Source of the DNA: a virus
Virus record (IMG/VR): IMGVR_UViG_3300000117_000004
Strand: one strand, 5' to 3'
Length of the DNA stretch: 38,360 nt
Shown: positions 4,605-37,654 of the stretch, piece after piece
Position numbering within the stretch: position 1 is the first letter of the stretch
How the letters are laid out: the number at the start of each line of letters is the position of its first letter
The notes under the pieces: model-generated
What the model saw: only the letters and a program-made list of their open reading frames with translations
The model's database searches: none
What the model was told of the DNA's origin: nothing
Translations under genes and position numbers: made by a program

Positions 4605-4997
4605 CTAAACGTATTCCATGTATTCATAGAACCATTTTCTTTTTTTGTTTTGACAATTCTTAGCCCTCTTTAAGGCTAATATGATTGAGCCTTCCCCATT
4701 GTATGGGACATAGGCGCAAAGCTTTTCTTCTGTTAAGTAAACAGCCAGGTAATCAATATGGTCAGCATTCTTGATGTGCTTATGCATCTTAACTTCTACA
4801 CTAGATTTAGTTTTAAGCTTGGTAATCGTTTTAATCTGTACGCGTTTAAAGGTCCCATTGTTAAAGCATACTAAATCAGTATTTTCAGTGTCGTTACAAG
4901 TTTGAAAAACTTCCACTCCTTGCAAAAGCAAATCAGAAATGATGGCATACTCACCAGCGGACCCAATAGTGGTAGTATTCATTTGCACTTCGGGCAT
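4605..4997 (-). CDS. PD-(D/E)XK-family endonuclease-like protein (PDDEXK_5-like)
   Basis: GSAGEYAIISDLLLQGVEV ... TDLVCF ... FKRVQIKT fits the G..E / D / (E/Q)xK arrangement of small restriction-endonuclease-fold proteins. Confidence 0.5.
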   Translation of the reverse strand: MPEVQMNTTTIGSAGEYAIISDLLLQGVEVFQTCNDTENTDLVCFNNGTFKRVQIKTITKLKTKSSVEVKMHKHIKNADHIDYLAVYLTEEKLCAYVPYNGEGSIILALKRAKNCQNKKRKWFYEYMEYV

Positions 4998-10001: not shown

Positions 10002-10045
10002 AAAAAAGCCCAAGGAGAGGACAGCGAATCACAAACTCCCTGGGC
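10001..10045 (-). terminator. Rho-independent terminator of the late operon
   Basis: Minus strand: GCCCAGGGA, a 20-nt loop, then TCCTTGGGC (one G-U pair), followed by TTTTTTT. It starts at the stop codon of the endolysin-like gene. Confidence 0.6.
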
Positions 10046-10530
10046 TAATTGTCAATATTAGATATCAACGATTTAAATTTAGCGACAGTGCCTTTACCTT
10101 TGCTACTATTATATATTAGCTTCCACATTGAGGCCGCCTCATCTTTATTGATTGGTAGCGGCATAGGTGAGCGCCAATATTTAATTCTAGCCATAATTAT
10201 AGCTACAGCCATATTATGTTCTAAAGCCCATTCCCATAATCTGGGGTCCGTAGACTTCCATAGTCTGGGGTCAGTCATAGAAGCCAAACTGCATTGTTCT
10301 CTAAGTGACTTTCGAAACTTAAAATAATTAGAAACAGCATCAACACATGTCATAGGTTCGACTTGCCAGAAACTTCTAGCTGGGCCATCACCTAATTGAT
10401 ATAAGTATTGATACTTAGATTCAACGTATCCAGTCCAAAATAGTAGGTTTACAGCGTTTTTATGCGCGTACTTATGACCTAACTCTTTTAGAGTAGAATG
10501 TATAAGTTTTCGTATTTGTTTATGATTCAC
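10045..10530 (-). CDS. Putative endolysin (SLT-like lytic transglycosylase pattern)
   Basis: TGYVESKYQ...GPARSFWQVEP resembles the E-S ... G-x-x-Q catalytic region of the SLT domain. It is the last gene of the late operon, next to small membrane proteins. GTG start. Confidence 0.45.
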   Translation of the reverse strand: MNHKQIRKLIHSTLKELGHKYAHKNAVNLLFWTGYVESKYQYLYQLGDGPARSFWQVEPMTCVDAVSNYFKFRKSLREQCSLASMTDPRLWKSTDPRLWEWALEHNMAVAIIMARIKYWRSPMPLPINKDEAASMWKLIYNSSKGKGTVAKFKSLISNIDN

Positions 10531-10887: not shown

Positions 10888-11109
10888 TTATATCATCCTC
10901 ATAACTATGTTTACTATTATCGGCAAAAGTATTACTCCAACTGTGCCATATGTTTTTATCATTACTAAATCTTTTTCATGTTCATCGAGTCTATAAAAAA
11001 TGCGCTGGATATTTGCATCTACTCTTTTAATTGAATTAAACAGCGTAATCTGCCTTTCATTTAATTTTGTTAAATGCTTTATAATCTCTGTATGCTGTTC
11101 ATGGTTCAT
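10888..11109 (-). CDS. Tail-anchored membrane/coiled-coil protein, 73 aa from the ATG at 11109
   Basis: C-terminal TM segment TYGTVGVILLPIIVNIVMRMI. The ATG at 11109 forms an ATGA overlap with the upstream stop. The track ORF extends to 11154. Confidence 0.5.
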   Translation of the reverse strand: MNHEQHTEIIKHLTKLNERQITLFNSIKRVDANIQRIFYRLDEHEKDLVMIKTYGTVGVILLPIIVNIVMRMI

Positions 11110-11417
11110 TTTCTCATCTTCTTCTTTGATAACGGATTCAAACTTTGGTACCATTTTATTTCCTCTTCCAGCTTCTCTCGTTCTATCTTCTCTTGTTCTA
11201 TATGCTTTTCAACCAGGGACTCAATGTTTTGATTATGTGATTCCACTCTAGACTCAAGTTCCGATAAGCGTTTTTCAAAACGATAGACTGCCATAGAAGC
11301 GATGCCCAAGGCCACCAGGCAATTGAACAAAAAACGAAGGTTGACATTGAGTATGAGATTGTCAGATATCGTTCTTGCTGAGTACGACCTATAAGTTTTT
11401 TCATCAGTGTCTCCCAT
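11106..11417 (-). CDS. Membrane protein with one TM segment plus a coiled coil, 103 aa
   Basis: TM segment LRFLFNCLVALGIASMAVY, followed by heptad-like RLSELESRVESHNQNIESLVEKHIEQEK. Confidence 0.55.
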   Translation of the reverse strand: MGDTDEKTYRSYSARTISDNLILNVNLRFLFNCLVALGIASMAVYRFEKRLSELESRVESHNQNIESLVEKHIEQEKIEREKLEEEIKWYQSLNPLSKKKMRK

Positions 11418-11730
11418 TTATCCTACTCAGGCTTCCCATCACTTCTGATAAATCATTATTTATTGATGATAGTTCTCGGCGCAAATCGTCATGCTTCCTA
11501 TCCAATTTATCATCTGACTTATCTAATCTTGACAATAACTTTAAAATTATCCCTTCGACATTGTTAATAGTCTCCTCTGACTTAGCCTGACTAACAGCTA
11601 ATTTATCTAATGTTTCATTTTGTGCATTTTGACTTCTTATTATATTGGTTATCATAAAACCAAATAAAAGGGCCATTACCCCAGTTACACCTAGAGTACT
11701 CCAGCTTTCAATAAGTGTTGTTGTATCCAT
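11404..11730 (-). CDS. Membrane protein with an N-terminal TM segment plus a coiled coil, 108 aa
   Basis: TM segment LGVTGVMALLFGFMITNII, followed by a coiled-coil-like region. Confidence 0.55.
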   Translation of the reverse strand: MDTTTLIESWSTLGVTGVMALLFGFMITNIIRSQNAQNETLDKLAVSQAKSEETINNVEGIILKLLSRLDKSDDKLDRKHDDLRRELSSINNDLSEVMGSLSRINGRH

Positions 11731-15282: not shown

Positions 15283-16068
15283 TTATACTGCTATAAATAC
15301 ATCGCCATCTTTATTGACTATGTCTCCAGCACTAGGGGAACTTGGCAAAGCTGTTACAGCTTGAAATCTTATAGTTCCATCCTCTTTCGCTTTCAACAAT
15401 TCTTTTGTATCCTTTTTCAAGGTTACCTCGGTAGCACCTAACGCTACCTTACCAGCTGTTCCATCGCCAAATGCAAACTGGTCTGTCGCATCAGGGTCTA
15501 ATACCATCTGATTCTGACCGCTATTTAAAGTTATTGTACCCTTCATAGTAACGTCTGTCATTATATCTAGTTTGTTACCAAAGGTAGCATTATTATCATC
15601 TAACAAACGAAATACTGTGTAATAAGTATTATCTGTTTGATTCCTTAATTGTATTGTATCAAACTTTACATCATCAGCAGTTATTTCATCTGCTGTAATA
15701 TCATCCAGGCTTAAGTCTCCAGTAACTGTTAGATTACCAGCTATAGTAGCATTACCACTTAGACTCAAATCTTCTGCTGTAACATCACCAGTTACAGTCA
15801 AATCATTCCCAATTGTTGTTATGCTTAAGGTCCCAGCAGTTAACGTACCGCTTACTGATAGATTACCAGTTACACTTGTATTACCACTAATAGTAGTAGC
15901 CCCTACAATATCTAAAGTATCTGTACCTAGAAATAGTGGACTTCCTACACCTTCGCCATCAAAAACTCGTTTAGCTGTAGACTCCAGGCCCTGATTAGGT
16001 GTGTCACTGGCTACAGTCAATAAGTCTTTAAAAGTTTCTGCTGGTGTTTTATTTAATAATGATGCCAT
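15283..16068 (-). CDS. Tail fibre/spike-associated protein with short beta-helix-like repeats
   Basis: Contains ISGNTSVTGNLSVSGTLTAGTLS...LTVTGDVTAEDLSLSGNATIAGNLTVTGDLSL. It lies directly after the giant gene. Confidence 0.55.
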   Translation of the reverse strand: MASLLNKTPAETFKDLLTVASDTPNQGLESTAKRVFDGEGVGSPLFLGTDTLDIVGATTISGNTSVTGNLSVSGTLTAGTLSITTIGNDLTVTGDVTAEDLSLSGNATIAGNLTVTGDLSLDDITADEITADDVKFDTIQLRNQTDNTYYTVFRLLDDNNATFGNKLDIMTDVTMKGTITLNSGQNQMVLDPDATDQFAFGDGTAGKVALGATEVTLKKDTKELLKAKEDGTIRFQAVTALPSSPSAGDIVNKDGDVFIAV

Positions 16069-16124: not shown

Positions 16125-19100
16125 TTAGTATAATTCATCTTGGTTTTTATAAAATCTGTTTTCCATATTTATCATCTTATCTACTTCTTCTTCAGTTAGT
16201 TCGGGATTTTTATCTAAATATGATTGTATATATCTTGAAAATTTTGATTGTTCTAATTGTGAATATTTTTTCCTCTTACTATTATTTCTCATTTCAAAAA
16301 TAGTTTGTAGTTCTGAGTTCTTTTTAAATTCACCAAAAAAGTTTCTTATCAGTGGTATCTCGTCAACTTGTAAATTGCCTTTATACAAATCAATCGGTGC
16401 GCTTATAAGTCTGGCTACACTTTTACCTAAACCACCAGATAGATATTCAGTAAAATACTCTAGTGTCTCAGGGCTTATATCACCAAAACCATCTCCAGGA
16501 CCATACTGACCACCAACAATCTCACCATTTTCATCATAAAGAAATCTATTTTGAGTAGCTAAAAACCAGCCCTCTGCGCTCTTTTTATATATCTCTGGTG
16601 TATTATCCCATGCTAATTGATTATCTGCTGGTGCTTCCTGATAGACTTCTGGATATATTGGTCCACCATAAAAATTCTTATTAGCACCTAGTTGTATAAA
16701 TGGCTTTAGAATTGTAGGTGTTATCATCTGTTCTATTGGAGAATCACCTAGAGGATTGTAGGAAGCATTGATAGCTGTCAACAATCTAAATAACTGGTCT
16801 GATTTATCTATAGCTTCACCACTATGTGCGGCCCAGGCTAAATCAGCTGTTATATTACCAACCACCTTAAATACATTAAATCCATAAGGTAGTCTCATTT
16901 TAAAATATTTATCACCTTCACCATATCTGGCTACGAAATAATTATCTTTTATATAGTTACCTAGCTTCTTGTATTCTTCATCATCATCAGACATATGATT
17001 TATCCAGGATTCCATGAAACCCATTGTTGTAAGTGTCGCTACAGCTTGTTGTGCTTTTTTAGATTTACCAACAACAGTCATTATTCTGTAACCACCTTGC
17101 AATCCAGCATTAGCGAATAGATATAAACTATTTAAGACTGGTCCCCACTCACCTTTTCTATTAAAGTTTATAGTTACATTCTTCGCACCAGAAGCCGCTT
17201 TTGAATCACTATATCCAGCATCTATCATTGCTTTAAATAATGTAAGCCTTACAGCAGATTCTGTTGCTTCATTAAGACTTTCAACAAAGCCTAAAATATT
17301 TTTAGCACCTTCCTTAACTGTATTTCTCTTTTGACCTACATTTGCTAAACTTTTTTCTAAGCCTTCCAGCTTTGCTTCAATGCTTTGTATATCAAAGAAT
17401 CCAGTCTTACCACCAGCTAATCTCATTCTATTGTATAGTTCACCCCACTCAGAATCAATCTCATCATTACGAACTATATTATATACAGCTTTCCAGGCTT
17501 GTTTTAGATTAGTAGGTGACATTGCTTGATTTCTTATATCACCACCTTGTTCAGCAGTTATGTTAATACCAGCTGTTTGTATATCTCGAACAAAGTTTGA
17601 GAAAATAAAATCTACGTTATATATAGTGTTAACATATCTAAGATAGGTATTAAAATGATTTAGAACTGGTATCGCTTTTGATACTCCTAACCCTTGTAAG
17701 GCTCTGGCTATTCTCTCTCCTTTTATACCTTTAAAAATAATTCTTTTTGTTTTACCATCTACTTTTACATTTAGGACATTTTTTTGGTCTACCTTATTAC
17801 CTTCACTATCCTTAGCAGACATTGGTGTCATATGTGATATTTCACCATTCTCATTATACACTGGATTATGTGGTATACCTTTTACCTCAAATGCCTCACT
17901 TGGGTAAGCCTCAACCAAAGCTAATACTTTTTTATTTACTTCATTTTTCTCAGCCCTGATAATAGCAGAATGCATTCTTTCAGCCGCGCTTACTATTATA
18001 TTTTTTACTGGTCTTTTACTACCGACTGCCCTAGCATATTCTTTACCACCAAAGATATTAAAACCCTTACCTCTATCCATAAATAGGTAACCACTAGATT
18101 CATATAAGCTATCACTATCATCCATCTCTCTAAATAGTGGTACATAGTTTTTAAATACATTGCCTTTAAGACTGTCAAAATCTTTCTGACTTATTAACCC
18201 AGCATCTAGCCTAACTTGCAGTTCTGCATCAATAAATTTTTCTCTAAATTCTTTAGTGTATTGTCTTAATACCTTTAATCCATATTTCTTATTTAATTCG
18301 GCCTTTATTCTTTTAGCCTCACTATTTGACATACCACTACCACCATCTTTATACTTAGTATTTGGTAAACTGGCTATGTAAGCATTACGCTCTGCGGCAT
18401 GTTCTGCATGTAAATATCTACTAAAATCATCAACAGATATACCTACATTTGTTATTAGTCTATTTACAAAACTGCTTTTATTCTTGCCAGATATTGTCTC
18501 ATTGTTAAAATCAGAGATTCTTTCTGGCATTTTACCCACAGCTAATTCAGCGGCTAATGCAACATCACGCTCTTCAGTAACTTTATTATCTTCTAAAAAT
18601 TGGCTTTCTATATCTTCTTGCCATGAGATAATAGGGGTAAGCGCATCAATTATCTTTCTTCTAACTAAACGAGATACTGACTCTTCTGAAAGGTCTAATG
18701 AATTTGTTTTGGAAGCCGACTTTATTTGTGCGGCTAAATTTGGATTGGGTCCTAGCTGATAGGTTAACTGGTCTTGTTTGGCTTTCTTTTCAAGCGCTTC
18801 TCGAACTTGTTGTTCAACTTGAGGTCCATAATGATTGTCGAGCCTTTTTTGTATATCGGGTCCGAAGCTGTCGGAGAGTTTATTACGATACCGCTGTCCA
18901 GCACTATCTTTTTTCCAGTTGTTGTTTGTTCTTTCATAATTTATCCCTAGTTCATCTAAATTTAACTCCATCCCAACTTCTTTCATAACCCTTTTTATTG
19001 CTGAAGTTAGCTGGGTGCTATAGTTATTTATATCTACGCGATTAACATTTGTAGGTATCATAAGAGCGCCATCATCAAAATATACTGATGGCATAAATTT

Positions 19101-22100
19101 TTTCGGTAACTCATCTTCTAAAATTGCTATAACAGCATCTTTATTAGCTTGTGTATCTAATTTAGGATGGCTTAAGCGTAAACCTAACATAGCACTATTT
19201 GGATTGGTCCTAGAATAGGCTACATTTTCTTTCTGTGTAATAAGCCCAATAGAATGCATTAAGCCTTTTACAGCTTGAGAACTTCCACGAACTTTTATGT
19301 TTCTACCATCTGTTTTAATTACTTTTAAGCCCATTTCTTTAGCTAATTTTTTAATTGGGCCATTTAATATTTTCTTATTTAATATCTCTTTTTGTCTTGG
19401 TCTAAGTCTTTCAAATGCATCACCATACTGCCTATACAAAGGACTATTCTTATCCATATCTAGTTTAAAAGATATTTGCGGCTTTATTAATTCCAATGCA
19501 TCTGGTATTGACTGCCCATCAGATGTTTCTGACATTCTAGCTATAGCTGTCCAACCAATAGCCTGGACCTGATGTGGCTTTAAGTTGCCACCTAAGTATC
19601 CCATTTCATTTAATTTATCAGTCAACTCATTCATGTAACGACTAGCATATTCATACTGAGTTTCTGAAGGACCAGCACCTTCCTGGTCAATAACTAACCC
19701 CTTAACATCATTCTTATTTACAGCTAGTCTTTTTAAAATATTCATTAGCTTTCCGTCTATAAAACCAGCATCTCTGAATGTGTGTCTATCAACAGCAACT
19801 GGCGCTAAACCAAATGGGTCATCCATCATCACAGTTCTTGTAGATTTGCCCAATGCACTATCTAAAAAGTCATATAGTTTTGCCCCAGCACCTTTTACTA
19901 CTCTTTTACCTTTTAAGGCTGATTTTATATTTTTAGCTACAGATTCGGTTCCAGGTGTTTTAAATGATGGTAGCGCGGCTTTTAATTGTTCACCAGCTAA
20001 GAATGTATTAGACAATGCTTGTAATGGACTAGCCTGGACATTACCAAGTAACCATGCAACCATATAATTGACTGCATCTTTTTCTCCAAATTCCTCAACA
20101 AAACTTGGATATGCTTCTTCATACCATACAGCGGCTTTCATTACCTCTTCATCATTCAATGTGCTTTCTACTTGACGTATCCAATCTTCTGGGGTTTTAT
20201 TTCTACCCAGAATCATTACACCACCATTTTTAAGTTTTACCTCTACTCTTTTATTAACTTGTTGACCTACACCCTTGGCTCTTTTCTTAGCCTTAGATAC
20301 TCTATTAGCCTTATCCTCATCGTTAACAACATCAGGATATAAACCAACAGCTTTTTCAACAACAGATGATTCTAACTGAAATGTTATATCATTGTTTCTA
20401 GGGTCAAATGTTCCTCTGTTAAATTGTGATTTTATTTGACCAGGCTCAAAAGCAACTACATGCATTGCTGGACCCATGATAGGGCTAAACATGCCAGTGT
20501 ATCTTTCTTGTGCATTGTTTAATACTATACCATCAAATCCAGCCGCTTCAATAACTCTTCTGATAAACTCATTACCCATTAGCTTACCATCTTCATTTTC
20601 AATATCTTGTACTAAATCAGATTCTTTCATTATCTTCATAAATTCTGACCCAGTCAATGCCATATCTGCCGCTGTTTCAAAAATTAAACCTTGTATTTGG
20701 CGCACAATATCTTCATCATATCTATAATTCAAATCAGCGTAGATGTCTGGTATTGCATCCATCATATCTATTACTGGACCAGATTCATCTATTACCTCGC
20801 CAGTCTCTTCATCTAATTCATATTCATATTCTAAATATGTATCTGGTGTCATATCACCATCTTTAGAACCTAGTACGAATGGATTCTGTACAGATAAATA
20901 TACTGGCATAATGTTGCCTTCATTCTCCATAAATCTATCCATCATAAATTGGTCATATTTTTGGTCTTGCCTGGCTGACCTACCATATTTTTCTCCAAAA
21001 AAGTCTTGTGCAGATTTTTGACTTTTAATTAGTAAATCTGGACTGCCTTCTGTTGCATAACTACGATTGACATCATTTATATTGCTAGAGAAATAAAATC
21101 CACTACCAAAGTCAGATTCGTGCCATGACTCAGCTATATCAAATTGTTGAAAATTTCTTGTTGTACCATGAAACATTCTTAATGGTGCGCCAGTGTCATC
21201 ATCTCTGGTTATCTTAGATTCTTTAAACCAGTTACGAAATTCTGGTGTATCTATATTTGTTTGAGGTTCTTTATTGCGAGTGCTATGCCAATTCTGGTAA
21301 TTGGGGTCATCATCCAACCTATCTAGTAGCTGATAGGATTTTGGGGCTTTGGGATTATTTGTTTTAGGTGGTGGGTTTTGAAATTGTTCCAAATATTCTT
21401 CACCATACAAAAATATATCTTCATCAACAGCTGTAGCAAATTTCTGATTTACTTCAATGCCTTCCGTTGGTCCGCGCATTTTATCAAAAACTAGCGTTCC
21501 ATCGCTCATTTGGCCCATTTTTTCGATAAATTCACTAGAAATATCCTCTGGAATGTAAATTGCATCTTGAAATTCTTTCGATATCGTTTTAAAGCCGCCT
21601 ATGGTGTATAAAATCGCATCTGAAAATAACTCAAGGTTACCATCGCCTTCCTCGGTAAATCGAAGATTTAGGCCCATTTCTGAAGCCTTTTTTCGAACAG
21701 ACCTTGCCCAAATTTCGATTTTGTCTGCTAAGGCTTTTTCTTCGGCATTTTTTGAGTTTCTAAGCTGTTTAAGTCTTCCTTCGACTGCTTCTTCAAGAAG
21801 TGTGCTTCTATCCGCTCTGCTGGTGAGCGATATATTGCCTTGAATATCATTCGCGCCTCTTGCAGTGACTGCGAATTGTCTTTCTCCATCTTTGGATTCG
21901 ACTTCTGAGAATCCATTGCTTTCTGGGTCATAACCTAACTCCCTTATTCTACTTTCTGAAAAAACTCTATCCCCATTGTCATCTGCATCATATTCTATCT
22001 TTAATGGGTTTGCTTCATCATCGTTTATTTCTTTTGCTGTTGTTTCTATTGTAATAGCATCTCTTTGCTGTACTTCAGCATCTACATCATCATCTCCTGG

Positions 22101-23252
22101 ATTCATATCCTCATTTGTAGCCATGATGCCATTGACTACGCTCTGTGCTGTAGCTGGTCCATATTCCGCAGTAACATCTACCGCCATCCTTCCACCTTGT
22201 ATTGGTAGTAAACCAGCGGCTGTTTGCTTTGCAGTTTCCCATGCTTCATCTACCATACTTTGCCAGGTCCTTGTAGGTACACCTTCTAGTACAGCACCTA
22301 CTTCTGTTGTTAGGAATTCTATACCTAACTGCAATTCTTCTTCCGCTATTTGTGTTGCCCAATCTTTTCCATATTGCTGTACCCATTTTCCTATCAAATC
22401 ACTAGTAGATTTTGCTATAACATCATTGGCTTTCTTTTGTATAGACTTGGGTATTGCTTTACCTATTTGCGCTTGTTCTACTAAGCCATAAAATAATCCA
22501 CCAGTATTAGCAAGTAAACTAGCTGTTCTTGGGTCCACATCCCTATCTAACATATTTTTAAGCATATTTCCAGCACCTTGCCTGGAAAAATAATAAGTAC
22601 TACCTACAGCAAATCCAGTAGCGCCAGAAATAGGAACTGTTACAGCCTCTTCTGGTACTAATGCTAATGGTGATAAATTTCCAACTACTGCCGCGCCAGT
22701 CATACCAGCCGCCGCTCCTGGTATACCAGCTTCAAGTCCTTTTGACATAGAACCAGCTAATTGACCAGATGCCCTAGCTACATACTCTAAAAAGTTATCA
22801 GCTTCAATTGGGTCATTTTGTGCTATTGCCTCATACTGACCATATGCTTTCTTTAAATCTTCAAAATCTTGGCTCCCAGGTACATTATGAAATGAGTCAT
22901 AAAAAGCTACATCAAAATCTGCGGCTTTTCTGGACCTCTTAAATGACTTCTTGAATGTACCAATAACACCTAAATCTGGTTTTGTAGATACTGGCTTCTT
23001 CTGTTCTTCTTTTTGCGCTTCCATCGCATCAAAGATTCTTTTGTTGTCGAAACCATCTTTGCGAAGTTTGTTTATCTGATTTAGTTCTTTAGGTGTTTTA
23101 AACTGGTCCTCTGGCTCAACAGCAAAATTAGGGTCATCGCCTAACTGCAAGATTTGATTGACTATAGATTCCTGATTTGCAGTGTCTTGCTTAGATGTGT
23201 CAGGACTAGATTTAAAATACTGACTTCTTAAAAAATCTTCAAACTCTGACAT
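16125..23252 (-). CDS. Giant (2375 aa) virion internal/ejection 'polyvalent'-type protein with an ADP-ribosyltransferase-like domain
   Basis: One uninterrupted ORF that makes up 19% of the genome, in the position of the T7 gp15/gp16 core proteins. Residues ~165-260 are Gly/Ala-rich hydrophobic segments. Residues ~668-958 read TPEFRNWFKESK..LRMFHGT..GSGFYFSS..VYLSVQNPF..GFDGIV..EPGQIKSQFNRGTFDP. That is the pattern I recall for the ART-PolyVal domain. Confidence 0.7.
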   Translation of the reverse strand: MSEFEDFLRSQYFKSSPDTSKQDTANQESIVNQILQLGDDPNFAVEPEDQFKTPKELNQINKLRKDGFDNKRIFDAMEAQKEEQKKPVSTKPDLGVIGTFKKSFKRSRKAADFDVAFYDSFHNVPGSQDFEDLKKAYGQYEAIAQNDPIEADNFLEYVARASGQLAGSMSKGLEAGIPGAAAGMTGAAVVGNLSPLALVPEEAVTVPISGATGFAVGSTYYFSRQGAGNMLKNMLDRDVDPRTASLLANTGGLFYGLVEQAQIGKAIPKSIQKKANDVIAKSTSDLIGKWVQQYGKDWATQIAEEELQLGIEFLTTEVGAVLEGVPTRTWQSMVDEAWETAKQTAAGLLPIQGGRMAVDVTAEYGPATAQSVVNGIMATNEDMNPGDDDVDAEVQQRDAITIETTAKEINDDEANPLKIEYDADDNGDRVFSESRIRELGYDPESNGFSEVESKDGERQFAVTARGANDIQGNISLTSRADRSTLLEEAVEGRLKQLRNSKNAEEKALADKIEIWARSVRKKASEMGLNLRFTEEGDGNLELFSDAILYTIGGFKTISKEFQDAIYIPEDISSEFIEKMGQMSDGTLVFDKMRGPTEGIEVNQKFATAVDEDIFLYGEEYLEQFQNPPPKTNNPKAPKSYQLLDRLDDDPNYQNWHSTRNKEPQTNIDTPEFRNWFKESKITRDDDTGAPLRMFHGTTRNFQQFDIAESWHESDFGSGFYFSSNINDVNRSYATEGSPDLLIKSQKSAQDFFGEKYGRSARQDQKYDQFMMDRFMENEGNIMPVYLSVQNPFVLGSKDGDMTPDTYLEYEYELDEETGEVIDESGPVIDMMDAIPDIYADLNYRYDEDIVRQIQGLIFETAADMALTGSEFMKIMKESDLVQDIENEDGKLMGNEFIRRVIEAAGFDGIVLNNAQERYTGMFSPIMGPAMHVVAFEPGQIKSQFNRGTFDPRNNDITFQLESSVVEKAVGLYPDVVNDEDKANRVSKAKKRAKGVGQQVNKRVEVKLKNGGVMILGRNKTPEDWIRQVESTLNDEEVMKAAVWYEEAYPSFVEEFGEKDAVNYMVAWLLGNVQASPLQALSNTFLAGEQLKAALPSFKTPGTESVAKNIKSALKGKRVVKGAGAKLYDFLDSALGKSTRTVMMDDPFGLAPVAVDRHTFRDAGFIDGKLMNILKRLAVNKNDVKGLVIDQEGAGPSETQYEYASRYMNELTDKLNEMGYLGGNLKPHQVQAIGWTAIARMSETSDGQSIPDALELIKPQISFKLDMDKNSPLYRQYGDAFERLRPRQKEILNKKILNGPIKKLAKEMGLKVIKTDGRNIKVRGSSQAVKGLMHSIGLITQKENVAYSRTNPNSAMLGLRLSHPKLDTQANKDAVIAILEDELPKKFMPSVYFDDGALMIPTNVNRVDINNYSTQLTSAIKRVMKEVGMELNLDELGINYERTNNNWKKDSAGQRYRNKLSDSFGPDIQKRLDNHYGPQVEQQVREALEKKAKQDQLTYQLGPNPNLAAQIKSASKTNSLDLSEESVSRLVRRKIIDALTPIISWQEDIESQFLEDNKVTEERDVALAAELAVGKMPERISDFNNETISGKNKSSFVNRLITNVGISVDDFSRYLHAEHAAERNAYIASLPNTKYKDGGSGMSNSEAKRIKAELNKKYGLKVLRQYTKEFREKFIDAELQVRLDAGLISQKDFDSLKGNVFKNYVPLFREMDDSDSLYESSGYLFMDRGKGFNIFGGKEYARAVGSKRPVKNIIVSAAERMHSAIIRAEKNEVNKKVLALVEAYPSEAFEVKGIPHNPVYNENGEISHMTPMSAKDSEGNKVDQKNVLNVKVDGKTKRIIFKGIKGERIARALQGLGVSKAIPVLNHFNTYLRYVNTIYNVDFIFSNFVRDIQTAGINITAEQGGDIRNQAMSPTNLKQAWKAVYNIVRNDEIDSEWGELYNRMRLAGGKTGFFDIQSIEAKLEGLEKSLANVGQKRNTVKEGAKNILGFVESLNEATESAVRLTLFKAMIDAGYSDSKAASGAKNVTINFNRKGEWGPVLNSLYLFANAGLQGGYRIMTVVGKSKKAQQAVATLTTMGFMESWINHMSDDDEEYKKLGNYIKDNYFVARYGEGDKYFKMRLPYGFNVFKVVGNITADLAWAAHSGEAIDKSDQLFRLLTAINASYNPLGDSPIEQMITPTILKPFIQLGANKNFYGGPIYPEVYQEAPADNQLAWDNTPEIYKKSAEGWFLATQNRFLYDENGEIVGGQYGPGDGFGDISPETLEYFTEYLSGGLGKSVARLISAPIDLYKGNLQVDEIPLIRNFFGEFKKNSELQTIFEMRNNSKRKKYSQLEQSKFSRYIQSYLDKNPELTEEEVDKMINMENRFYKNQDELY

Positions 23253-23253: not shown

Positions 23254-24036
23254 CTACTTACTATTTTCTGGGTTTAGTGATTGTATATATGCATCATACT
23301 CTGGCTTAAGATTTGCCTTAATAAACTCTTCTTCAACTAAGTTTAGATTTCTATCGTATTTGTCTAAAGCATCTTGAACTAGCCTTTGTATTGCAAATCT
23401 AGATAATGAAACTTTATTTGCTAATTTTCTTTCTAGTTCTACAAGTTCTTCTAATTCTGCTTCTTTCTTTTTATTATCTGAAACAGTTAATTGTTTGGGC
23501 CTATCTTTGTAAACCTTTCTTTTCTTTTTTTCGTATTTTGCTTCTATATCTTTTCTTTTTTGTTCTATGCCTTCTTTTTCCAAACGTAATTCTTCTTTCT
23601 TCTGCTTGTAAGTAATGAAGTCTAGTTTAATCTTGGATTTTCTTTTTGCTTCAGCATCTTCGTCTTTCTTTACCTTATCTTTTATTTTCTGTTCTGCTTT
23701 CTGCGCTTTTTCTACTTCTTTCTTTGCATCCTCTTCAATCTTAAGGTCTAATTTTTGCTTTGCGAGTGTATTTTCTTTATTACGTCTTTGCTGTTCTCCA
23801 TACCCTTCTTCAAACTCTTTCTTTTGTTTTAGCGCTCTTTTATCTGACAAATCAAGAATCTTTGCCCTGGTTGTTGCATCCATTCTTTTCCATTGTTCAA
23901 GGTACATAGCATCTTCCTTGGCGCTATTTTGAGATTGGCCAATGTTAGTTGTTACATTGTCCTGGCTAGGCATTTGTTTTACCTTACCTTTTTGACTTAA
24001 TAAACTTTTAAAGTATGATTCGTTTGGCGCTGTCAT
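23254..24036 (-). CDS. Lys/Glu-rich long-helix protein (internal virion protein candidate)
   Basis: Long E/K-rich stretches (KKEVEKAQKAEQKIKDKVKKDEDAEAKRK...). The ATG at 24036 follows GAGGGA and the upstream stop. The track ORF starts at 24048. Confidence 0.55.
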   Translation of the reverse strand: MTAPNESYFKSLLSQKGKVKQMPSQDNVTTNIGQSQNSAKEDAMYLEQWKRMDATTRAKILDLSDKRALKQKKEFEEGYGEQQRRNKENTLAKQKLDLKIEEDAKKEVEKAQKAEQKIKDKVKKDEDAEAKRKSKIKLDFITYKQKKEELRLEKEGIEQKRKDIEAKYEKKKRKVYKDRPKQLTVSDNKKKEAELEELVELERKLANKVSLSRFAIQRLVQDALDKYDRNLNLVEEEFIKANLKPEYDAYIQSLNPENSK

Positions 24037-24037
24037 T

Positions 24038-24667
24038 TTATCCCTCATCTCCCTCGTTTAACTTATCTCGGTTTTTTGATACCCAATCTAAGAAGGCATC
24101 TCTGCTAGATTCGTTTTTGTTAGTACCAAAAAGGAAATCATCTAATTCATTTTGTCTTTTTTGACTACCATAAGCGCTGACTCCAGTGCTTAGTGCATCT
24201 CCAAAAGAACCAATGATATTATCTCTACGTTGCATTCTGGCTAAAGCATTATTATAATCAATGTCACTTATTCCCTGGCTAATCTCTGCGGCGCTTTTTA
24301 AAGCATTCATTTTAGAATCTTCATTAGCTAATGCTATTTCTTTTGCCATTCTAGCAAGTTCTAAAGTTGTTTTACCACCTTGCTTTAACATCTGTTCTGC
24401 TGGAATACCACTACTTTCCATGCCTTGCTGTATAGCTAAGTTTCTTATGTTTTGATTACTTTCTTTTTGAGACTGCTTTATATCTGTAGCAATGTCATTT
24501 TTTACATTTTCTCCATACAAACCATCTTTAGCAATTTGCCTTTGTTTGTTTAACAATGCTGTAGTATCACTACTAACTTTTCTCTGTGGTGTTTTTGAAA
24601 ATAATGACTGCCCAGCTTTTACAAGACTGGGTGCCGCCATCAATAACGCTCTTGTATATGGGTCCAT
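24038..24667 (-). CDS. Internal virion protein candidate, 209 aa
   Basis: The assignment rests on its position between the tubular-protein-like genes and the giant gene. No motif. Confidence 0.5.
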   Translation of the reverse strand: MDPYTRALLMAAPSLVKAGQSLFSKTPQRKVSSDTTALLNKQRQIAKDGLYGENVKNDIATDIKQSQKESNQNIRNLAIQQGMESSGIPAEQMLKQGGKTTLELARMAKEIALANEDSKMNALKSAAEISQGISDIDYNNALARMQRRDNIIGSFGDALSTGVSAYGSQKRQNELDDFLFGTNKNESSRDAFLDWVSKNRDKLNEGDEG

Positions 24668-24927: not shown

Positions 24928-25282
24928 CTATCTCTATCTCCAATTTTCTTATAACTACATCATTATTATCAGACTGAGTTGTTAACTCAATTGACAACGC
25001 TTTTGCCCTGGCTCCTACAGATGGCCTTCTACTTACAATTTTACTTCCACTACTATTAGCTGGGAAGTCAATAGAAAACAATGCTGTGCCACTTAATTCT
25101 CCATCTGCATATCCTTTACATGTAACAATGCTACCACTATCATAGTGCAGATTAATTCTTCTTATAATGTTAGATTTGTCATAATCACCACTGATATCAA
25201 TGATTCCAGTTTGATATATGCCTTGAATAGCCTCTGTGCTATTACTTTTATGCAATTCTCTTATTTCTGTTTTAAATGCCAT
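24920..25282 (-). CDS. Small virion-module protein, 120 aa
   Basis: Tightly packed ORF. Its start shares one nucleotide with the upstream stop. Confidence 0.5.
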   Translation of the reverse strand: MAFKTEIRELHKSNSTEAIQGIYQTGIIDISGDYDKSNIIRRINLHYDSGSIVTCKGYADGELSGTALFSIDFPANSSGSKIVSRRPSVGARAKALSIELTTQSDNNDVVIRKLEIEIDG

Positions 25283-27576
25283 TATGGACTCGGATTGGTG
25301 TTATAAACTCTAAAACCATATAGGCCAAGTTCATCGTCAGTAGCAAAAAAATCAGCGGCTTTAAAATTTGTTAAATCTGTAAATACATACTTGGTCCATA
25401 CATTCTGTATTAAATCATATGCATATATGTTAGAAGAGGTGTCTCCAAACTTGCATATAAGCCTATCTCTTTTAATGTCATACACTACTTTGCTACTACT
25501 TTTATTAGTAATACCTTGATAGATATCCTCAATAGGCTTAGTGATTGGAACAAAAGTAAAATCTGGCCTTATCTGAAACATATTATCATTAGCGCAGAAA
25601 AATAGATTATCTTTTGCATTTACAATACTTTCTGGAGCGATACAGCCTACACTTGTATTAACCTCTAACAATGTAAACAATGAAGGGTCACCCGATGATA
25701 CATCTAATCTAAATACACCCCTAGTCATAAAAACCACCAGGTTATTTAATATCCTATCTAAGCCATTTATAAATCCACCTTGCTGGTCCAAGATTCTAAT
25801 AAAATTAGTAGAAGGTATAATATCAGGCTGTCCTGGCTCACTATACATTACAAAATCAGGATGATTCTCAGGATTCCCATTTGGGTCTACTTGCACATTA
25901 CCAACAAAATGTGTATCGCCAATCATTTGACTATATTTATACCTAGTGTCTACAGTTGCATCTGTTCCTAGAAATGGCGCTAAAAAACTATTAGTATACC
26001 CAATGTCATAAAAGTGCAATGTAGAATGAGTGCTATCTCTAGTTAAAACATAATCTTTATATAAATCAACAGAATCACTATCAGAGTATGCATCAATATT
26101 ATCTAACCTTACAGCTTTACCAACTGACTCTAACACAATTCTTTGTCCACCACTAGCATTAACAGCTATGTAACCATTTGCGCCATTTATACCAAATCTA
26201 TCATCACTAGGCATATCATATATCAATGCTTTGTCATGCCACACAACATTAAATAAATCTGTTCTAGCATTACTTGCTGGAACTTCTCCAGTGAATTGTG
26301 GTAGGTTATCTGAACTTCTTTCCCCAAAATAAATTCTATGTATTTTACATTGTCCGTTAAAAACATAATCAGGGTCCGATGAACCAGTTTGTGCTTGTGC
26401 AATACCTTTTTGTAATAATGCTAAAAATGCAGAATCATTTAAAGGACCATCACTCGCATCAAATGTCCAAGTATTTCCACTGGAATTAGTACCATCTATA
26501 GGTGTACTCCCACCATATATAACTGGACTATTTCCTGGGCTTTGGAATGAATCTAAGACTCCATTTTCGTCAGGCATTAATACATACCAAGACACTCTAA
26601 GATTATTATAAGGAATTGTAGTTGTAACATTAGGCATACTTAAAACACCATCACTTGCTGTAAGGCTAGAATAGTTATCTATAAAAGTATTACTAAATAC
26701 ATGCCCATCACCCTCATACACTGTTTTATCTTTAAAAATAATATTATCAGTATCATTAGATGTGTTTATTGGGACCTCGCCAATCTGATAATAATTATCG
26801 TCATTACCAGTCTCCCTATAAATCTTTACACTAGTAATTCTAGGGTTAAAAGGATATGATTTATTTGGCGCTGTTCCACTACCTGATTGATTCGGCAGTC
26901 TAATAGATATTTTATTGCATTTATTAGCATTGCCCATGGTAACAGTTTTAAATGCAGTATCTAATGGCAGTTCTTGCGCCCCATCAAAGATTGGACTAAG
27001 TTTATAATTATATGTATTGTCAGCTAAAGTAAGTCCAGTATTAGCACCTAATGTGACAGCAGTAAGAGATTGAAAATCCATTTCAGCTGTTGTTGGATGT
27101 ACTGGTGTAGCATTTTGAAAAACATATTCATTTATTGTATCACTACCTTCAAAAAATTTTCTGCTTATATGCTGTAAAATCTTTGCTGGGTTACTTAAAT
27201 TATCTGTAGAAATTCTAAAGTCTTGCCCATGGTCATTTAAATCAACTCTAGCACTGGATGTAACTGCACTCCCACAATCTTGTGGAGAACTAAAATTACT
27301 ATTTAATTTTTTTATCTTATTATTAACAGCATCAAAACCAACCCAGATAGCTGGTATCTCAGCATTACTTGTATCTAAGTTAGATGGGGACCAATATTGT
27401 AACTGAGTTAAGCGAACACTAGTAAGTTCTGTTGCGCTACCTCTTCCATCATACTTGGTTAATGTACCTGGTGTATCTAATGAGAAGTTTTGATTTTGTC
27501 TAGAGTATTCCAGACCAATATCAGTAGGGTCTGCTTTCGTTGCAAGTCCTTGGAATTCCTTAACCTCTATTAACAT
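25282..27576 (-). CDS. Tail tubular protein B-like (nozzle) protein
   Basis: The call rests on size (764 aa) and position after the capsid/adaptor genes, in T7-like order. No rigorous homology check was possible. Confidence 0.45.
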   Translation of the reverse strand: MLIEVKEFQGLATKADPTDIGLEYSRQNQNFSLDTPGTLTKYDGRGSATELTSVRLTQLQYWSPSNLDTSNAEIPAIWVGFDAVNNKIKKLNSNFSSPQDCGSAVTSSARVDLNDHGQDFRISTDNLSNPAKILQHISRKFFEGSDTINEYVFQNATPVHPTTAEMDFQSLTAVTLGANTGLTLADNTYNYKLSPIFDGAQELPLDTAFKTVTMGNANKCNKISIRLPNQSGSGTAPNKSYPFNPRITSVKIYRETGNDDNYYQIGEVPINTSNDTDNIIFKDKTVYEGDGHVFSNTFIDNYSSLTASDGVLSMPNVTTTIPYNNLRVSWYVLMPDENGVLDSFQSPGNSPVIYGGSTPIDGTNSSGNTWTFDASDGPLNDSAFLALLQKGIAQAQTGSSDPDYVFNGQCKIHRIYFGERSSDNLPQFTGEVPASNARTDLFNVVWHDKALIYDMPSDDRFGINGANGYIAVNASGGQRIVLESVGKAVRLDNIDAYSDSDSVDLYKDYVLTRDSTHSTLHFYDIGYTNSFLAPFLGTDATVDTRYKYSQMIGDTHFVGNVQVDPNGNPENHPDFVMYSEPGQPDIIPSTNFIRILDQQGGFINGLDRILNNLVVFMTRGVFRLDVSSGDPSLFTLLEVNTSVGCIAPESIVNAKDNLFFCANDNMFQIRPDFTFVPITKPIEDIYQGITNKSSSKVVYDIKRDRLICKFGDTSSNIYAYDLIQNVWTKYVFTDLTNFKAADFFATDDELGLYGFRVYNTNPSP

Positions 27577-28535
27577 TATAAAATTCCAACAGCTAACCTA
27601 TCAGAAACATATCCCATATTGCCAGTATCTTTATTAGCGACAGTACTTCTGGCCTTTTCTCTATTTGCAACATATAAACTATAATGATTTTGATATTGTT
27701 TTATGTCACCTAAATCCTGATGTATCATTGCTTTTGCATAGTCTACTAAATGATAATGATAGACATCAGGAATCTGTGGTTTTGTATCAGTATAATCAAA
27801 TTGTACACCTTTTGTTCTAGCCAACCCACCAATACCTAACACATTCCAACCTTGAACAAACTGACTCCAGTCAGTGCCATAATCATTGGCATACTGGTCT
27901 GCTTCGCCACCACTTGCATAAAAATCTTCATTATTATTAGTAAAGCCATTTGTTATGTTTGATATAACAATATGACCTTCTAATGCATCTAAGTATTCTA
28001 TTCTTTCAACTGTTGCTGTTGTAGTTGTGCTATTACTAGCGCCAATTCTGGATTTTAAAACATCGCCAACTCTAAAGTATTCTGATGCAACAGTATCAAA
28101 TCTGAATCTTTTAAGGCCAGATAAACTTCTAAGACTTTTAGGTACACCAACATATGTTATTGTAAGTACCCCACTCTTTTGTGGTCTAGGTATTAGATAC
28201 ATTCTGTTATCTTCTATAAAATACTCATAGGGTGTACCAATCCTAGCTATGTTAGTATCTAAACTCTTTGTGTAATCAAGACTATTACTACTAGCCTTTT
28301 TTAAACAATGACTTCTAAAGATAGGCTCATCGGCCAATTCTACAAAATCATCTGGTAGCGTTATATGACTTTTCTCTTTGTAATAATAAACATTAATTTT
28401 TTTGACAAAGCATCTTGTAAACAATGCAAAGTCTTCCTGAGCCTCATCTAGATATAATCCAGCACGAGTATCTATTTGACCAATGCGACCCTCAAAAGGT
28501 ACTAAGGTCCTTGCGATTAAGTTATCCCATGTCAT
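27576..28535 (-). CDS. Tail tubular protein A / gatekeeper candidate (positional)
   Basis: 319-aa ORF immediately upstream of the nozzle-like gene. Overlapping start/stop. Confidence 0.35.
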   Translation of the reverse strand: MTWDNLIARTLVPFEGRIGQIDTRAGLYLDEAQEDFALFTRCFVKKINVYYYKEKSHITLPDDFVELADEPIFRSHCLKKASSNSLDYTKSLDTNIARIGTPYEYFIEDNRMYLIPRPQKSGVLTITYVGVPKSLRSLSGLKRFRFDTVASEYFRVGDVLKSRIGASNSTTTTATVERIEYLDALEGHIVISNITNGFTNNNEDFYASGGEADQYANDYGTDWSQFVQGWNVLGIGGLARTKGVQFDYTDTKPQIPDVYHYHLVDYAKAMIHQDLGDIKQYQNHYSLYVANREKARSTVANKDTGNMGYVSDRLAVGIL

Positions 28536-29176
28536 GAACCTACCCCCACTGGTTTTTCAATTGTATATCTTTCATTAAGCATTTTTATCTGTTCCATTGC
28601 GGAAGTCTTAGCTAATTGTGACCTATCTGTCTTATTGTCCATCCTCCACAACTCTGCTTCTGCTAAATCAACCATTATGTCATGTAGTGCAACATTTAAT
28701 ACTGGTTCTTGTGAACCACTTATAGAAGCTGGTGATTTTAGATAATACAAAAATGCATTTGTAAAACCACCTACTTGTGCATTTGGCCTAATGGTTACAT
28801 TATTACCAAATACCCAATACACTGGGTTTCCAGAATCAGCACTTAAATATTTATTCTCTAATTTCTTTACATCTGAAAAAGGTATTCTAATCGCATAAGT
28901 TGTCCCAAGCTGTACTGCACGAATACTATTTCGTATTGGGACCTGACTAGATTTATTAGTTGCATCACTTCCATCTAACGTAATTAAACCACCAGTACCA
29001 CTTATAGAAACAGAATCCTTAAACTCTAATTCTGTTAGATATGCTTCATGTAAAAAATTAGCTAACATTACTTGCGCTGTATTTAATGCGCTATCTTTTG
29101 TGGAAGCTGTAAAATTATTTTCGCCAGTATCTTCTAAACGAAGACCTAGCTTTGAATGCATTTGTGTTCTTGTCAT
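28532..29176 (-). CDS. Head-tail adaptor candidate (positional)
   Basis: 214-aa ORF between the capsid genes and the tail genes. ATGA overlap with the next gene. Confidence 0.35.
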   Translation of the reverse strand: MTRTQMHSKLGLRLEDTGENNFTASTKDSALNTAQVMLANFLHEAYLTELEFKDSVSISGTGGLITLDGSDATNKSSQVPIRNSIRAVQLGTTYAIRIPFSDVKKLENKYLSADSGNPVYWVFGNNVTIRPNAQVGGFTNAFLYYLKSPASISGSQEPVLNVALHDIMVDLAEAELWRMDNKTDRSQLAKTSAMEQIKMLNERYTIEKPVGVGS

Positions 29177-30502: not shown

Positions 30503-31384
30503 TTATTCATAAAACTTATAGTTCTTCAATGCATCGGACCTGGCATCCTTATAACTAGATGGTTTTCGCGTTGGCTCTTCTCGAAGCGCCTTTGCTGGAC
30601 CTTCTGGTTCTGGTATGCTTTTCATGGCCTTTGCATTTCTAGCCCTATTTACTGCGGTCTTAAAAGCACTATCCTCAGCTGATGTATGATAGGTTAAAAC
30701 AAATGCATCCTCTAAACCTTCTTGACCTACAAAGCCTTTTTCAATGGCTGTGGTAATAACCTCATCCATTAAATCTTGGTCCTCTAGTTCGGGATGTGTT
30801 TGCTTGAGATTTGCAAGGTCCTGGAAAACTTGCTGGTCGGCTTCTTTGACTGCTAGTTCTTCTTCTTTCTCTTGCTGTATCTCGTTTAACCTTTCTTCCA
30901 ACTCCTGGACCTTATCTAGGTCCTTCGTGTCCTGGTTCTGTATCTCTTCCGCTACACCTGGATTGAAGATAGGATGGTCATCTGGCAAGACATCTCTAAG
31001 TGCATCTATGGCATTTTCATCGTTCTGTAAATCGCGCCAAATCTGGCTTTCGTCTTGGAAAGCTTTACGTTCAGCGGACAACTGCTGTGCCTTTTCCGTA
31101 TTGGATTTTTGCCAATCAGATTTATTATTAAATGCCTCTAAAGCTTCACTTATTGTGTCGATATCATATTCAACACCATCCAGTTCTAAGCTTTCGACTT
31201 CTACCCCATCATCCAGGTCTGTTGTTGCTACTTCTTCTAACTGCTGTGATTGGTCCACATTGACATCATCAGTTGGGGAAAGTACCTCATCCCCTTGCCC
31301 AATAGGTTCTGTATCAGTTAAACTCGCTATTTCATCTGAAGTTAAAGTAACACCAGAATAGCTTGTTCTTATTTCTTCTGACAT
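30503..31384 (-). CDS. Scaffolding protein
   Basis: 293 aa, very acidic, predicted helical/coiled coil (ELEERLNEIQQEKEEELAVKEADQQ). It lies between the portal and the capsid. Confidence 0.6.
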   Translation of the reverse strand: MSEEIRTSYSGVTLTSDEIASLTDTEPIGQGDEVLSPTDDVNVDQSQQLEEVATTDLDDGVEVESLELDGVEYDIDTISEALEAFNNKSDWQKSNTEKAQQLSAERKAFQDESQIWRDLQNDENAIDALRDVLPDDHPIFNPGVAEEIQNQDTKDLDKVQELEERLNEIQQEKEEELAVKEADQQVFQDLANLKQTHPELEDQDLMDEVITTAIEKGFVGQEGLEDAFVLTYHTSAEDSAFKTAVNRARNAKAMKSIPEPEGPAKALREEPTRKPSSYKDARSDALKNYKFYE

Positions 31385-32008: not shown

Positions 32009-32195
32009 AACTTTTCTTTTTCTTCTTCTTTTTCAAAGATGCTAAATACTTTTCTTTTTTACTAGTTTGTGATTCTTTTAAAGCTTTAGCAGTCGGCGCA
32101 CCTTTTTCACCAGGCTTTCTCATTTTCTCGCCACTACCAGCTTTTATTCTTTTTCTTTTGGCATGTATATTTGCCCATAAACCTCTTTTAGCCAC
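32001..32195 (-). CDS. Lys-rich basic protein, 64 aa
   Basis: GLWANIHAKRKRIKAGSGEKMRKPGEKG...KKEKYLASLKKKKKKKSYA. GTG start overlapping the upstream stop. Confidence 0.5.
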   Translation of the reverse strand: MAKRGLWANIHAKRKRIKAGSGEKMRKPGEKGAPTAKALKESQTSKKEKYLASLKKKKKKKSYA

Positions 32196-32457
32196 ACTTA
32201 CATCTCCATTTTCTTAATGCCTTATTTATTCTGCTGTTAGGGTCATTAGCTGTTTTAGCTGATGTCAACCTTTTTTTCATTCCGCACATTCTAGCGCAAA
32301 AACTTTTACGTCTTGATTTAGCTTTACCTTTTGGATTTTTCTTTGTTACTGGTGCTTTTAGGTTACCCCCAGTGGCACGATTATAACTGGCACGACCTTT
32401 AGCATTAAGGCCACCTGATTCAGATTGACCTTCTTTTTTAGTCCATGCCTGGCTCAT
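32188..32457 (-). CDS. Basic protein, 89 aa
   Basis: GGLNAKGRASYNRATGGNLKAPV...RRKSFCARMCGMKKR...ALRKWRCKCG. Its start overlaps the end of the portal gene. Confidence 0.55.
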   Translation of the reverse strand: MSQAWTKKEGQSESGGLNAKGRASYNRATGGNLKAPVTKKNPKGKAKSRRKSFCARMCGMKKRLTSAKTANDPNSRINKALRKWRCKCG

Positions 32458-36187: not shown

Positions 36188-36200
36188 CTATTGGCTCACC
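36181..36200 (-). repeat. Double-octamer motif, copy 3 (minus strand GGTGAGCCAATAGTGAGCCA)
   Basis: The plus strand reads tggctcactattggctcacc. This is 19/20 identical to the two attP-flanking copies and spans the stop codon of the TerS-like gene. Confidence 0.6.
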
Positions 36201-37569: not shown

Positions 37570-37571
37570 TC

Positions 37572-37654
37572 TCCATACTGATGATGGCCAGGGTGGTTCC
37601 CTGGCCGAAACCAATAGGTCTATGGTAACCAAAAATAAAACAAGGACAGCAATC
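37572..37654 (+). promoter_or_regulatory. Early-operon intergenic element, copy B, with hairpin 37586-37606
   Basis: GGCCAGGG-tggtt-CCCTGGCC. Same locus as 23-105. Confidence 0.6.

Follow-up and report, generated by a model that had tools for sequence, protein, structure and literature searches.

The window analysed here is the whole 38,360-nucleotide stretch of the IMG/VR virus record IMGVR_UViG_3300000117_000004, and the element in question is a giant gene in its late region that encodes a protein of 2375 amino acids (aa) and 265 kDa. The gene forms a single uninterrupted frame from an ATG start. It occupies 19.0% of a 37,548-bp genome, the share that the initial annotation of this DNA had given to a single open reading frame (ORF), and the peptides quoted in that annotation are all present at the positions given for them. 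Two Pfam families match the protein above threshold, ART-PolyVal, an ADP-ribosyltransferase (ART) domain, and LPD38. An alignment of ten close relatives together with local profile searches divides the protein into four parts: an N-terminal region (aa 1-640), a cassette (aa ~660-958), a middle region (aa 960-1497) and a C-terminal module (aa 1498-2375) (Table 1). Metagenome assemblies hold an identical protein (P0001), a relative of 87% identity (P0002) and eight relatives of 45-51% identity that are 2097-2447 aa long. The contigs of these relatives reach about 39 kb, and those of the 87% relative, a TARA Oceans scaffold among them, have the same gene order as the window. By its predicted domains the giant protein belongs to the phage-type polyvalent proteins described by Iyer et al. 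(2017; PMC5512222), since a single chain of very large size unites several unrelated globular domains, one of them a predicted effector enzyme.

Other searches with the giant protein were negative. NCBIfam gave zero matches for it or its neighbours, PDB sequence searches with the whole protein and with a 10-sequence profile gave chance-level matches only, and Pfam detected no lysozyme, SLT or peptidase family in it. No RNA polymerase-like match was obtained in Pfam, PHROGs, NCBIfam, PDB sequences or Foldseek, where aa 1-640 were covered by sequence only. The initial annotation had recognised no RNA polymerase gene in the phage, which agrees with our library and fold searches. It had also kept a virion RNA polymerase as an alternative identity of the giant protein; this identity is disfavoured, as no single-subunit RNA polymerase was matched (aa 1-640 again by sequence). 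The missing RNA polymerase gene is unremarkable because the phage is temperate, with an integrase and a repressor-like gene.

Table 1. Features of the giant gene and of its neighbourhood (positions in the window)
Feature	Position	Strand	Basis
Giant polyvalent protein gene, 2375 aa, ATG start, single uninterrupted frame	16125..23252	-	ORF, translation
N-terminal region, aa 1-640	21333..23252	-	alignment, profile search
Gly/Ala-rich stretch, aa ~165-260	22473..22760	-	alignment of 10 relatives
Junction motif 1, Y640-Q641-L642	21327..21335	-	motif scan
ART-PolyVal domain, aa 685-944	20421..21200	-	Pfam PF18760, E 4.6e-18
Junction motif 2, F958-Q959-L960	20373..20381	-	motif scan, alignment
Middle region, aa 960-1497	18762..20375	-	model, phmmer
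Junction motif 3, Y1498-Q1499-L1500	18753..18761	-	motif scan, alignment
C-terminal carrier module, aa 1498-2375	16128..18761	-	PHROGs, tblastn, model
LPD38 domain, aa 2091-2301, inside the carrier module	16350..16982	-	Pfam PF18857, E 2.1e-30
Two Cys-free ORFs, 264 and 209 aa, directly upstream of the giant gene	23254..24667	-	0 Cys each; position
Podovirus tail genes: two adaptor-like (214 and 319 aa) and 764-aa gene	25282..29176	-	family matches, position

Domains of the giant protein

The ART-PolyVal domain scores 66.8 bits against a curated gathering cut-off of 31.2. The initial annotation had suggested this domain on the residue pattern at ~668-958 (nt 20379-21251) and had proposed a Pfam run; the run puts the family above its curated cut-off, and the suggested span brackets the match. 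A weak local match to DUF3990 covers aa 692-727, and ART-PolyVal and DUF3990 are both listed among the families of the Pfam ART clan (PMC7955679). The ART of polyvalent proteins, assigned to the Tox-ART-HYD2 clade, is defined by a His in strand 1, a Tyr in strand 2 and an Asp in strand 5 (PMC5512222). In an alignment with 21 other ART-PolyVal domains this H-Y-D triad is intact in the window protein, as H695 (within HGT), Y720 (GFYFS) and D907 (GFDGIV), and the further family motifs PVYLS-x-QNP, G-[YF]-DG and QIKS are kept. Two large inserts (aa ~725-775 and ~795-900, ~150 aa together) are the reason why the 260 aa of the domain align to just 134 profile positions; comparable inserts are found in P0003 and in the distant P0011. 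In an AlphaFold model of aa 641-1500 the predicted strands coincide with the HGT, FYF, PVYLS and DGIV motifs, in a low-confidence part of the model, and Foldseek with this model against the PDB retrieved no ART and only generic ferredoxin-like matches at E values of at least 0.015. Because the model is of low confidence and no solved ART was matched, the fold assignment depends on the Pfam classification and the triad, and it is not contradicted by the model. On these grounds the domain is apparently intact, and NAD+-dependent ADP-ribosyl transfer is predicted for it.

The ART behaves as an exchangeable unit in comparisons of collinear close relatives. It is present in the window protein, in P0002-P0005 and in P0007, and absent from P0006 and P0009. 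P0010 has in its place a domain with a GNAT-like motif, RRRGIGSSLL, and in P0008 the same GNAT-like domain (aa 673-766; three GNAT family matches at E 6e-4 to 8e-3, below the Pfam cut-offs) precedes the ART. Such a GNAT-next-to-ART arrangement is known from gammaproteobacterial prophages and an uncultured Mediterranean phage (PMC5512222). Distant relatives keep the C-terminal module only and carry Zeta-toxin, RadC, ParB-like, RelA/SpoT, methylase or lysozyme domains instead. Most of these cargo domains need cytoplasmic substrates, as the ART needs NAD+. We regard the ART as a swappable cargo cassette.

The C-terminal module of ~880 aa is the sole part that is common to the whole family. Its LPD38 domain scores 106.7 bits against a cut-off of 27; LPD38 has been reported solely for polyvalent proteins of the phage type, of which it is a hallmark (Iyer et al. 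2017). PHROGs match the giant protein at aa ~1515-2337 only, with the giant-protein families 14770, 616 and 10691 and E values down to 1e-96. A tblastn search of 50,697 phage records returned 344 records, all via aa ~1491-2336 and at 28-29% identity. These are mainly phages converting to Shiga toxin (Stx) production and phages of Vibrio, Ralstonia and Burkholderia, phi24B among them; in VT2phi_272, which is related to phi24B, it is the C-terminal part of an ORF of 2806 aa that matches. The AlphaFold model of aa 1498-2375 is mostly alpha-helical (predicted local distance difference test, pLDDT, 75.9; predicted template modelling score, pTM, 0.75). It has 80 matches in BFVD at E<=0.001 with template modelling (TM) scores of 0.6-0.86, mostly to the last pieces of split phage giant proteins, and the C-terminal piece of the PTXU04 polyvalent protein matches with a TM score of 0.64. 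Matches to PDB entries, which begin at E 0.14 and include helical membrane transporters, were treated as noise.

Conserved-looking blocks (MRLPYGFNVF and two others) had been pointed out in the initial annotation. They lie in this module and are invariant in the ten relatives, and several of their residues stay invariant or nearly so in 33 relatives of 21-30% identity. At this level of identity the invariant or nearly invariant positions of the module include R1622, N1623, N1886, R1889, D1890, E1998, R2002, F2030, G2034, N2048 and Q2052. As an alignment pattern, the invariant residues of the module look more like a putative catalytic or ligand-binding site than like a passive conduit.

Several homologues that share the module have been studied. 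In phi24B, gp47 (2811 aa, with LPD5, LPD1, LPD38 and MuF-C) is abundant in virion proteomics and invisible in the cryo-electron microscopy map, and the authors propose that it is an encapsidated ejection protein (bioRxiv 10.64898/2026.04.10.717836). In JC1, gp69 (4515 aa, LPD38 at 4195-4401) was detected by mass spectrometry with 51 unique peptides in CsCl-purified virions (PMC9144972). The polyvalent protein of PTXU04 is essential for infection, as found by CRISPRi-ART (PMC11879866). Because the C-terminal module is common to the giant proteins detected in phi24B and JC1 virions, packaging of the predicted window protein in the virion is well supported by homology, and injection is what we infer beyond it. 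The earlier proposal of a probably ejected protein gains indirect support in this way, through the placement of aa ~1500-2340 in a family with virion-detected members.

The first 640 residues have no match in Pfam, PHROGs or NCBIfam. Outside the clade, a profile of aa 1-360 retrieves P0038 and P0043 only. The Gly/Ala-rich N-termini of distant relatives look alike by eye, but their hhalign comparison with the N-terminal profile reaches a probability of 23%, which does not establish an N-terminal module common to the family. As judged from these searches, the region appears specific to the clade of the window protein. Within it, the Gly/Ala-rich stretch is conserved, with many glycines invariant in the ten relatives. 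A 171-aa ORF with a TTG start on the opposite strand (21976-22491, plus strand) lies antisense within the giant gene and overlies this Gly/Ala-rich region; most likely it merely results from the compositional bias of the coding strand.

In the model, the middle region consists of a helical domain (aa ~980-1310) that is followed by two ferredoxin-like units, mostly at pLDDT 70-88, and Foldseek against the PDB gave zero matches at E<=0.001. A phmmer search of 1.84 billion representatives with the middle domain returned 403 matches at E<=0.001, 181 of them at <=1e-30, mostly over query residues 20-352 and in proteins of 316-3861 aa. Judging from these matches, the first ~330 residues of the region constitute a widespread domain; it is found before or after the ART and with or without the C-terminal module. 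Pfam has only a weak DUF7178 match for it, in one relative. The invariant polar residues among the ten relatives include D1144, D1145, D1155, R1156, H1157 and D1161, and the invariant Asp, Arg and His suggest that the region may be an enzyme. A 'DRW' region in P0016, P0019 and P0044 resembles the middle domain by eye, a likeness that was dropped, as a profile search gave no support.

Cysteine content and junction motifs

The giant protein contains no cysteine in 2375 residues. The other ORFs of the window have 0.72% Cys, and the chance of finding none is about 4e-8. The same holds for 38 of 45 relatives, which range from 1441 to 4108 aa, and for 125 of the 148 representatives found via the middle domain, where 53 Cys occur in 243,416 residues. 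In an Stx-phage homologue two Cys occur, within the 13 residues at the N-terminus, and the four ORFs upstream of it (L004) are Cys-free. In the window further Cys-free ORFs lie at 23254-24048, 24038-24667, 15283-16068, 28532-29176 and 30503-31384. Cysteine is not mentioned by Iyer et al. (PMC5512222). The lack of Cys may reflect selection against disulfides in a protein that is kept unfoldable in an oxidising environment and passes a narrow channel. Colicins and secreted toxins offer an analogy for such cysteine avoidance.

A second sequence rule concerns the joints between domains. The motif [YFHR]-Q-L occurs in exactly three copies in the giant protein, each at a domain boundary. It is found at the equivalent junctions in nearly all relatives, and in P0008 also between the GNAT-like domain and the ART. 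At the second junction Q959 and L960 are nearly invariant (>=90%) and position 958 is Y, F or H except in P0006; at the third, Q1499, L1500 and P1502 are invariant in the ten relatives. In the cassette-free P0009 the N-terminal region joins the middle region directly via SFQLEP. By eye, distant relatives have aromatic-polar motifs after their domains (RYSRG, IRYSL, MFSRA, KFSRR). Among their tripeptides FSR is 2.5-fold over expectation, and YSR, YQL and FSL are not enriched. The evidence for a family-wide junction motif is only suggestive, because FSR is enriched but the related tripeptides are not. The junction motifs could be cleavage sites or recombination joints. The motif HExxH is present in each of the distant relatives inspected by eye, and it is absent from the window protein and from P0002-P0010.

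Genome and gene neighbourhood

The ends of the window repeat exactly over 812 bases (1-812 = 37549-38360), and for this reason the unique genome length is 37,548 bp. The direct repeat stems from overlap in the assembly of a genome that is circular or circularly permuted, and the window holds this genome complete and circularly assembled. The ORFs at 73-699 and 37541-38248 span one and the same gene region within this end repeat. Family scans identified an integrase, a repressor-like regulator, an exonuclease, a DnaD-like replication protein, a large terminase, a portal, a major capsid protein and a fibre-like protein. Genes for a tail tube, a sheath or a tape measure were not seen in the window. 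Its predicted gene content is that of a temperate marine podovirus, and the phage is known only from metagenomes; a near-identity DNA search of phage records gave zero matches.

The late genes are ordered as terminase, portal, small ORFs, a 293-aa ORF, capsid protein, two adaptor-like genes, a 764-aa gene, small ORFs, the giant ORF and fibre-like genes. In the window and in the 87% relative alike, the giant gene sits between the adaptor/nozzle genes and the fibre genes. The initial annotation had read a T7-like order here, with the giant ORF in the place of the ejected core proteins gp15 and gp16. The layout is correct as described, but there is no sequence or fold similarity to gp15/gp16 (fold compared for aa 641-2375). 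The 319-aa gene (27576-28535, minus strand) matches SU10_adaptor (PF24175, E 1e-9), and the 217-aa adaptor-like homologue in the locus of a relative (L001) has a weak adaptor match. The 764-aa gene is likely a nozzle. The portal of a relative matches the P22_portal and SU10_portal families, and PDB sequence searches with the portal and with the 764-aa gene yielded no informative match.

The two Cys-free ORFs upstream of the giant gene have no match in family searches (Pfam, PHROGs, NCBIfam), and a single base separates the end of the upstream ORF from the ATG of the giant ORF. From their position they are possible companion internal proteins. Directly downstream, a Cys-free ORF of 261 aa (15283-16068, minus strand) has a weak bactofilin-like match below cut-off (E 1e-5), which suggests a beta-helical tail needle or fibre component. 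Two ORFs of 103 and 108 aa (11106-11730, minus strand) contain one strongly hydrophobic segment each (Kyte-Doolittle 1.83 and 2.02), and 576 bases downstream of this pair a 161-aa ORF (10045-10530, minus strand) matches phrog_3108; together they are probably a lysis cassette with holin-like genes. Further minus-strand matches are a PD-(D/E)XK endonuclease (PF11645) at 4605-4997, DUF6321 at 32188-32457 just downstream of the portal gene, and DUF5681 at 36188-36553 upstream of the large terminase gene; the DUF5681 protein is a possible small terminase subunit. Scans of 29 further window ORFs with Pfam and/or PHROGs revealed no protease or RNA polymerase gene.

Proposed role and alternatives

We favour, as the probable reading, a phage-type polyvalent protein in which a conserved delivery module is fused to exchangeable enzyme cargo, and which is packed into the virion, injected, and ADP-ribosylates host targets. 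The giant protein would be made late, alongside the structural proteins of this temperate marine podovirus, and would be packed in the capsid, most likely via the C-terminal helical module that contains LPD38. At infection it would exit through the portal and the tail channel, ahead of or together with the DNA. To pass the channel the protein would have to be extended and unfolded, and that it has no Cys at all fits this requirement. In the cytoplasm the ART-PolyVal domain, with its triad residues H695, Y720 and D907, would use NAD+ to ADP-ribosylate one or more host targets, and this modification would help the incoming genome to become established, through takeover of the host or a blunted defence. 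The middle region may act as a second cargo or accessory domain, and the aromatic-Gln-Leu junctions may be cut sites that release separate units. The identities of the domains, the intact triad, the homology of the C-terminal module, the exchange of the ART, the avoidance of Cys and the position of the gene are what the analysis shows. Packaging is deduced from homologues; cytoplasmic injection, the enzymatic activity with its target and cleavage at the junctions are inferences.

Several points weigh against this reading. The case for this phage is built on its sequence and on homologues. In the literature searched we found no biochemically characterised member of ART-PolyVal, and likewise none of LPD38. 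A 15-sequence ART profile gave chance-level matches only and no solved ART among PDB sequences, and in the AlphaFold model the pLDDT stays below 50 for most of aa 641-995. Its two large inserts could interfere with the ART domain, and P0005 and P0007 have Ser at the position of the triad Tyr, so that not every ART copy in the family need be active. For the C-terminal module, Foldseek against the PDB reached a best E value of 0.14 and the model resembled no solved ejection protein; a conduit function or a relation to T7 gp15/gp16 is not supported. The Gly/Ala-rich stretch at aa ~165-260, which had been put forward as membrane-inserting, is real and conserved, but it is weakly hydrophobic, with a best 19-residue Kyte-Doolittle mean of 1.43 that is below usual transmembrane values; its insertion into membranes is a guess. 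Finally, the genome scans (Pfam, PHROGs, NCBIfam) revealed no protease gene and the clade has no HExxH, and junction cleavage is therefore speculative.

The protein could instead be mainly a structural ejection device, a tail extension that spans the periplasm or a channel, with the ART as a degenerate, non-catalytic remnant or a binding module. The authors of the phi24B study propose a transperiplasmic conduit role for gp47 (bioRxiv 10.64898/2026.04.10.717836), no cargo comes near the large, helical C-terminal module in conservation, and the ART-less P0006, P0009 and P0010 appear complete, which makes the ART dispensable for the core function; moreover, the ART with its ~150 aa of inserts is poorly modelled. 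However, the triad has been retained together with all of its flanking motifs (HGT, PVYLS-x-QNP, G-[YF]-DG, QIKS), which speaks for selection on catalysis, and the fold search revealed no resemblance to known conduit proteins. A conduit role is also compatible with an effector role, and the two could coexist; we consider a mainly structural role unlikely. If the ART is catalytic, its target could be nucleic acid or a component of the phage itself, by DarT-like ADP-ribosylation of DNA or DarB-like protection of the genome in cis. Homologues with methylase and helicase cargo are annotated as DarB-like antirestriction proteins (PMC9144972), the Pfam ART clan includes DarT (PMC7955679), and the cargo of relatives is often DNA-directed (ParB-like, RadC, methylase). 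Iyer et al., in contrast, group the polyvalent ART with protein-modifying clades and predict protein targets (PMC5512222), and the strongly acidic region beside the ART has no sequence sign of DNA binding, which leaves such a target quite unlikely.

Delivery itself might be questioned, since the phi24B and JC1 data concern presence in the virion only and injection has not been demonstrated for any LPD38 protein. The protein might then act late in the producing cell, or stay in the capsid as a DNA organiser or assembly scaffold. Yet cargo enzymes that require NAD+, ATP or DNA would be useless inside the capsid, the family-wide avoidance of Cys is hard to explain without unfolding or the crossing of an oxidising compartment, and the phi24B protein is not visible as ordered density. 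We regard a protein that is not injected as very improbable. A bolder idea takes the LPD38 giants as a general Cys-free injection chassis, in which the carrier threads unfolded cargo through the tail of the podovirus and the junction motifs, Y/F-Q-L-E-P in the clade of the window and F/Y-S-R-like elsewhere, are cut or recombination sites. We hold this as a tentative and rather doubtful generalisation. If it were true, separate effectors such as the ART would be released or exchanged, in the clade of the window without a recognisable protease, and a processing enzyme of a new type might lie in the middle domain or the C-terminal module, each of which has invariant polar residues.

Known systems place the polyvalent reading in context. 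The closest are the LPD38 polyvalent proteins phi24B gp47, Bcep22 gp75 / JC1 gp69 and PTXU04 gp25, each a single giant encoded among the late or structural genes of a podovirus. They share with the window protein a C-terminal module of ~800-880 aa with LPD38, variable cargo upstream and the H-Y-D ART-PolyVal. The genomes of these phages are 57-65 kb, compared to 37.5 kb here, so that the gene takes up its large share of 19%. The window protein differs from them by its clade-specific N-terminal 640 aa and its origin in a marine temperate phage seen in metagenomes only, and it has no zincin (MPTase / MuF-C), HExxH, lysozyme or transglycosylase domain; the zincin-like MPTase processing domain is frequent but not obligatory in phage-type polyvalent proteins (Iyer et al. 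2017). The initial annotation had likened the protein to Alt of T4, a virion-carried ART that is delivered with the genome and modifies host proteins early (PMC5512222). The proposed delivery logic is alike, but Alt is a small separate protein of the R-S-E clade (Alt/VIP2), whereas the window ART is of the H-Y-D type and fused to a giant carrier. We propose that it works like Alt but outside the Alt family. With T7 gp14, gp15 and gp16 the giant gene shares its position in the gene order, and passage through the tail channel is expected for both. It is one protein instead of three, with no lytic transglycosylase and no sequence or fold similarity to them (any PDB chain; fold of aa 641-2375). 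P1 DarB and the polyvalent proteins with GNAT and ART (BAR32501.1) are likewise packaged multi-enzyme anti-host proteins, and P0008 has the same GNAT-then-ART order; the window protein itself has no methylase, helicase or GNAT.

The interpretation follows a published hypothesis and is nothing new: a 2017 study predicted that polyvalent proteins are multi-enzyme packages that enter by injection together with phage or plasmid DNA (PMC5512222). What is added here is the cassette variation among close relatives, the family-wide lack of Cys, the junction motif and the finding that no processing peptidase can be recognised, and these leave the category unchanged. The window offers a compact case, with four modules in a 37.5-kb genome, and its relatives with ART, without ART and with a GNAT-like domain form a ready comparison set for cargo function. 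The absence of Cys and the junction motif give simple rules of sequence that can be put to the test and that concern the exit of a 265-kDa protein from the capsid, and they could guide the design of phage-delivered protein cargo.

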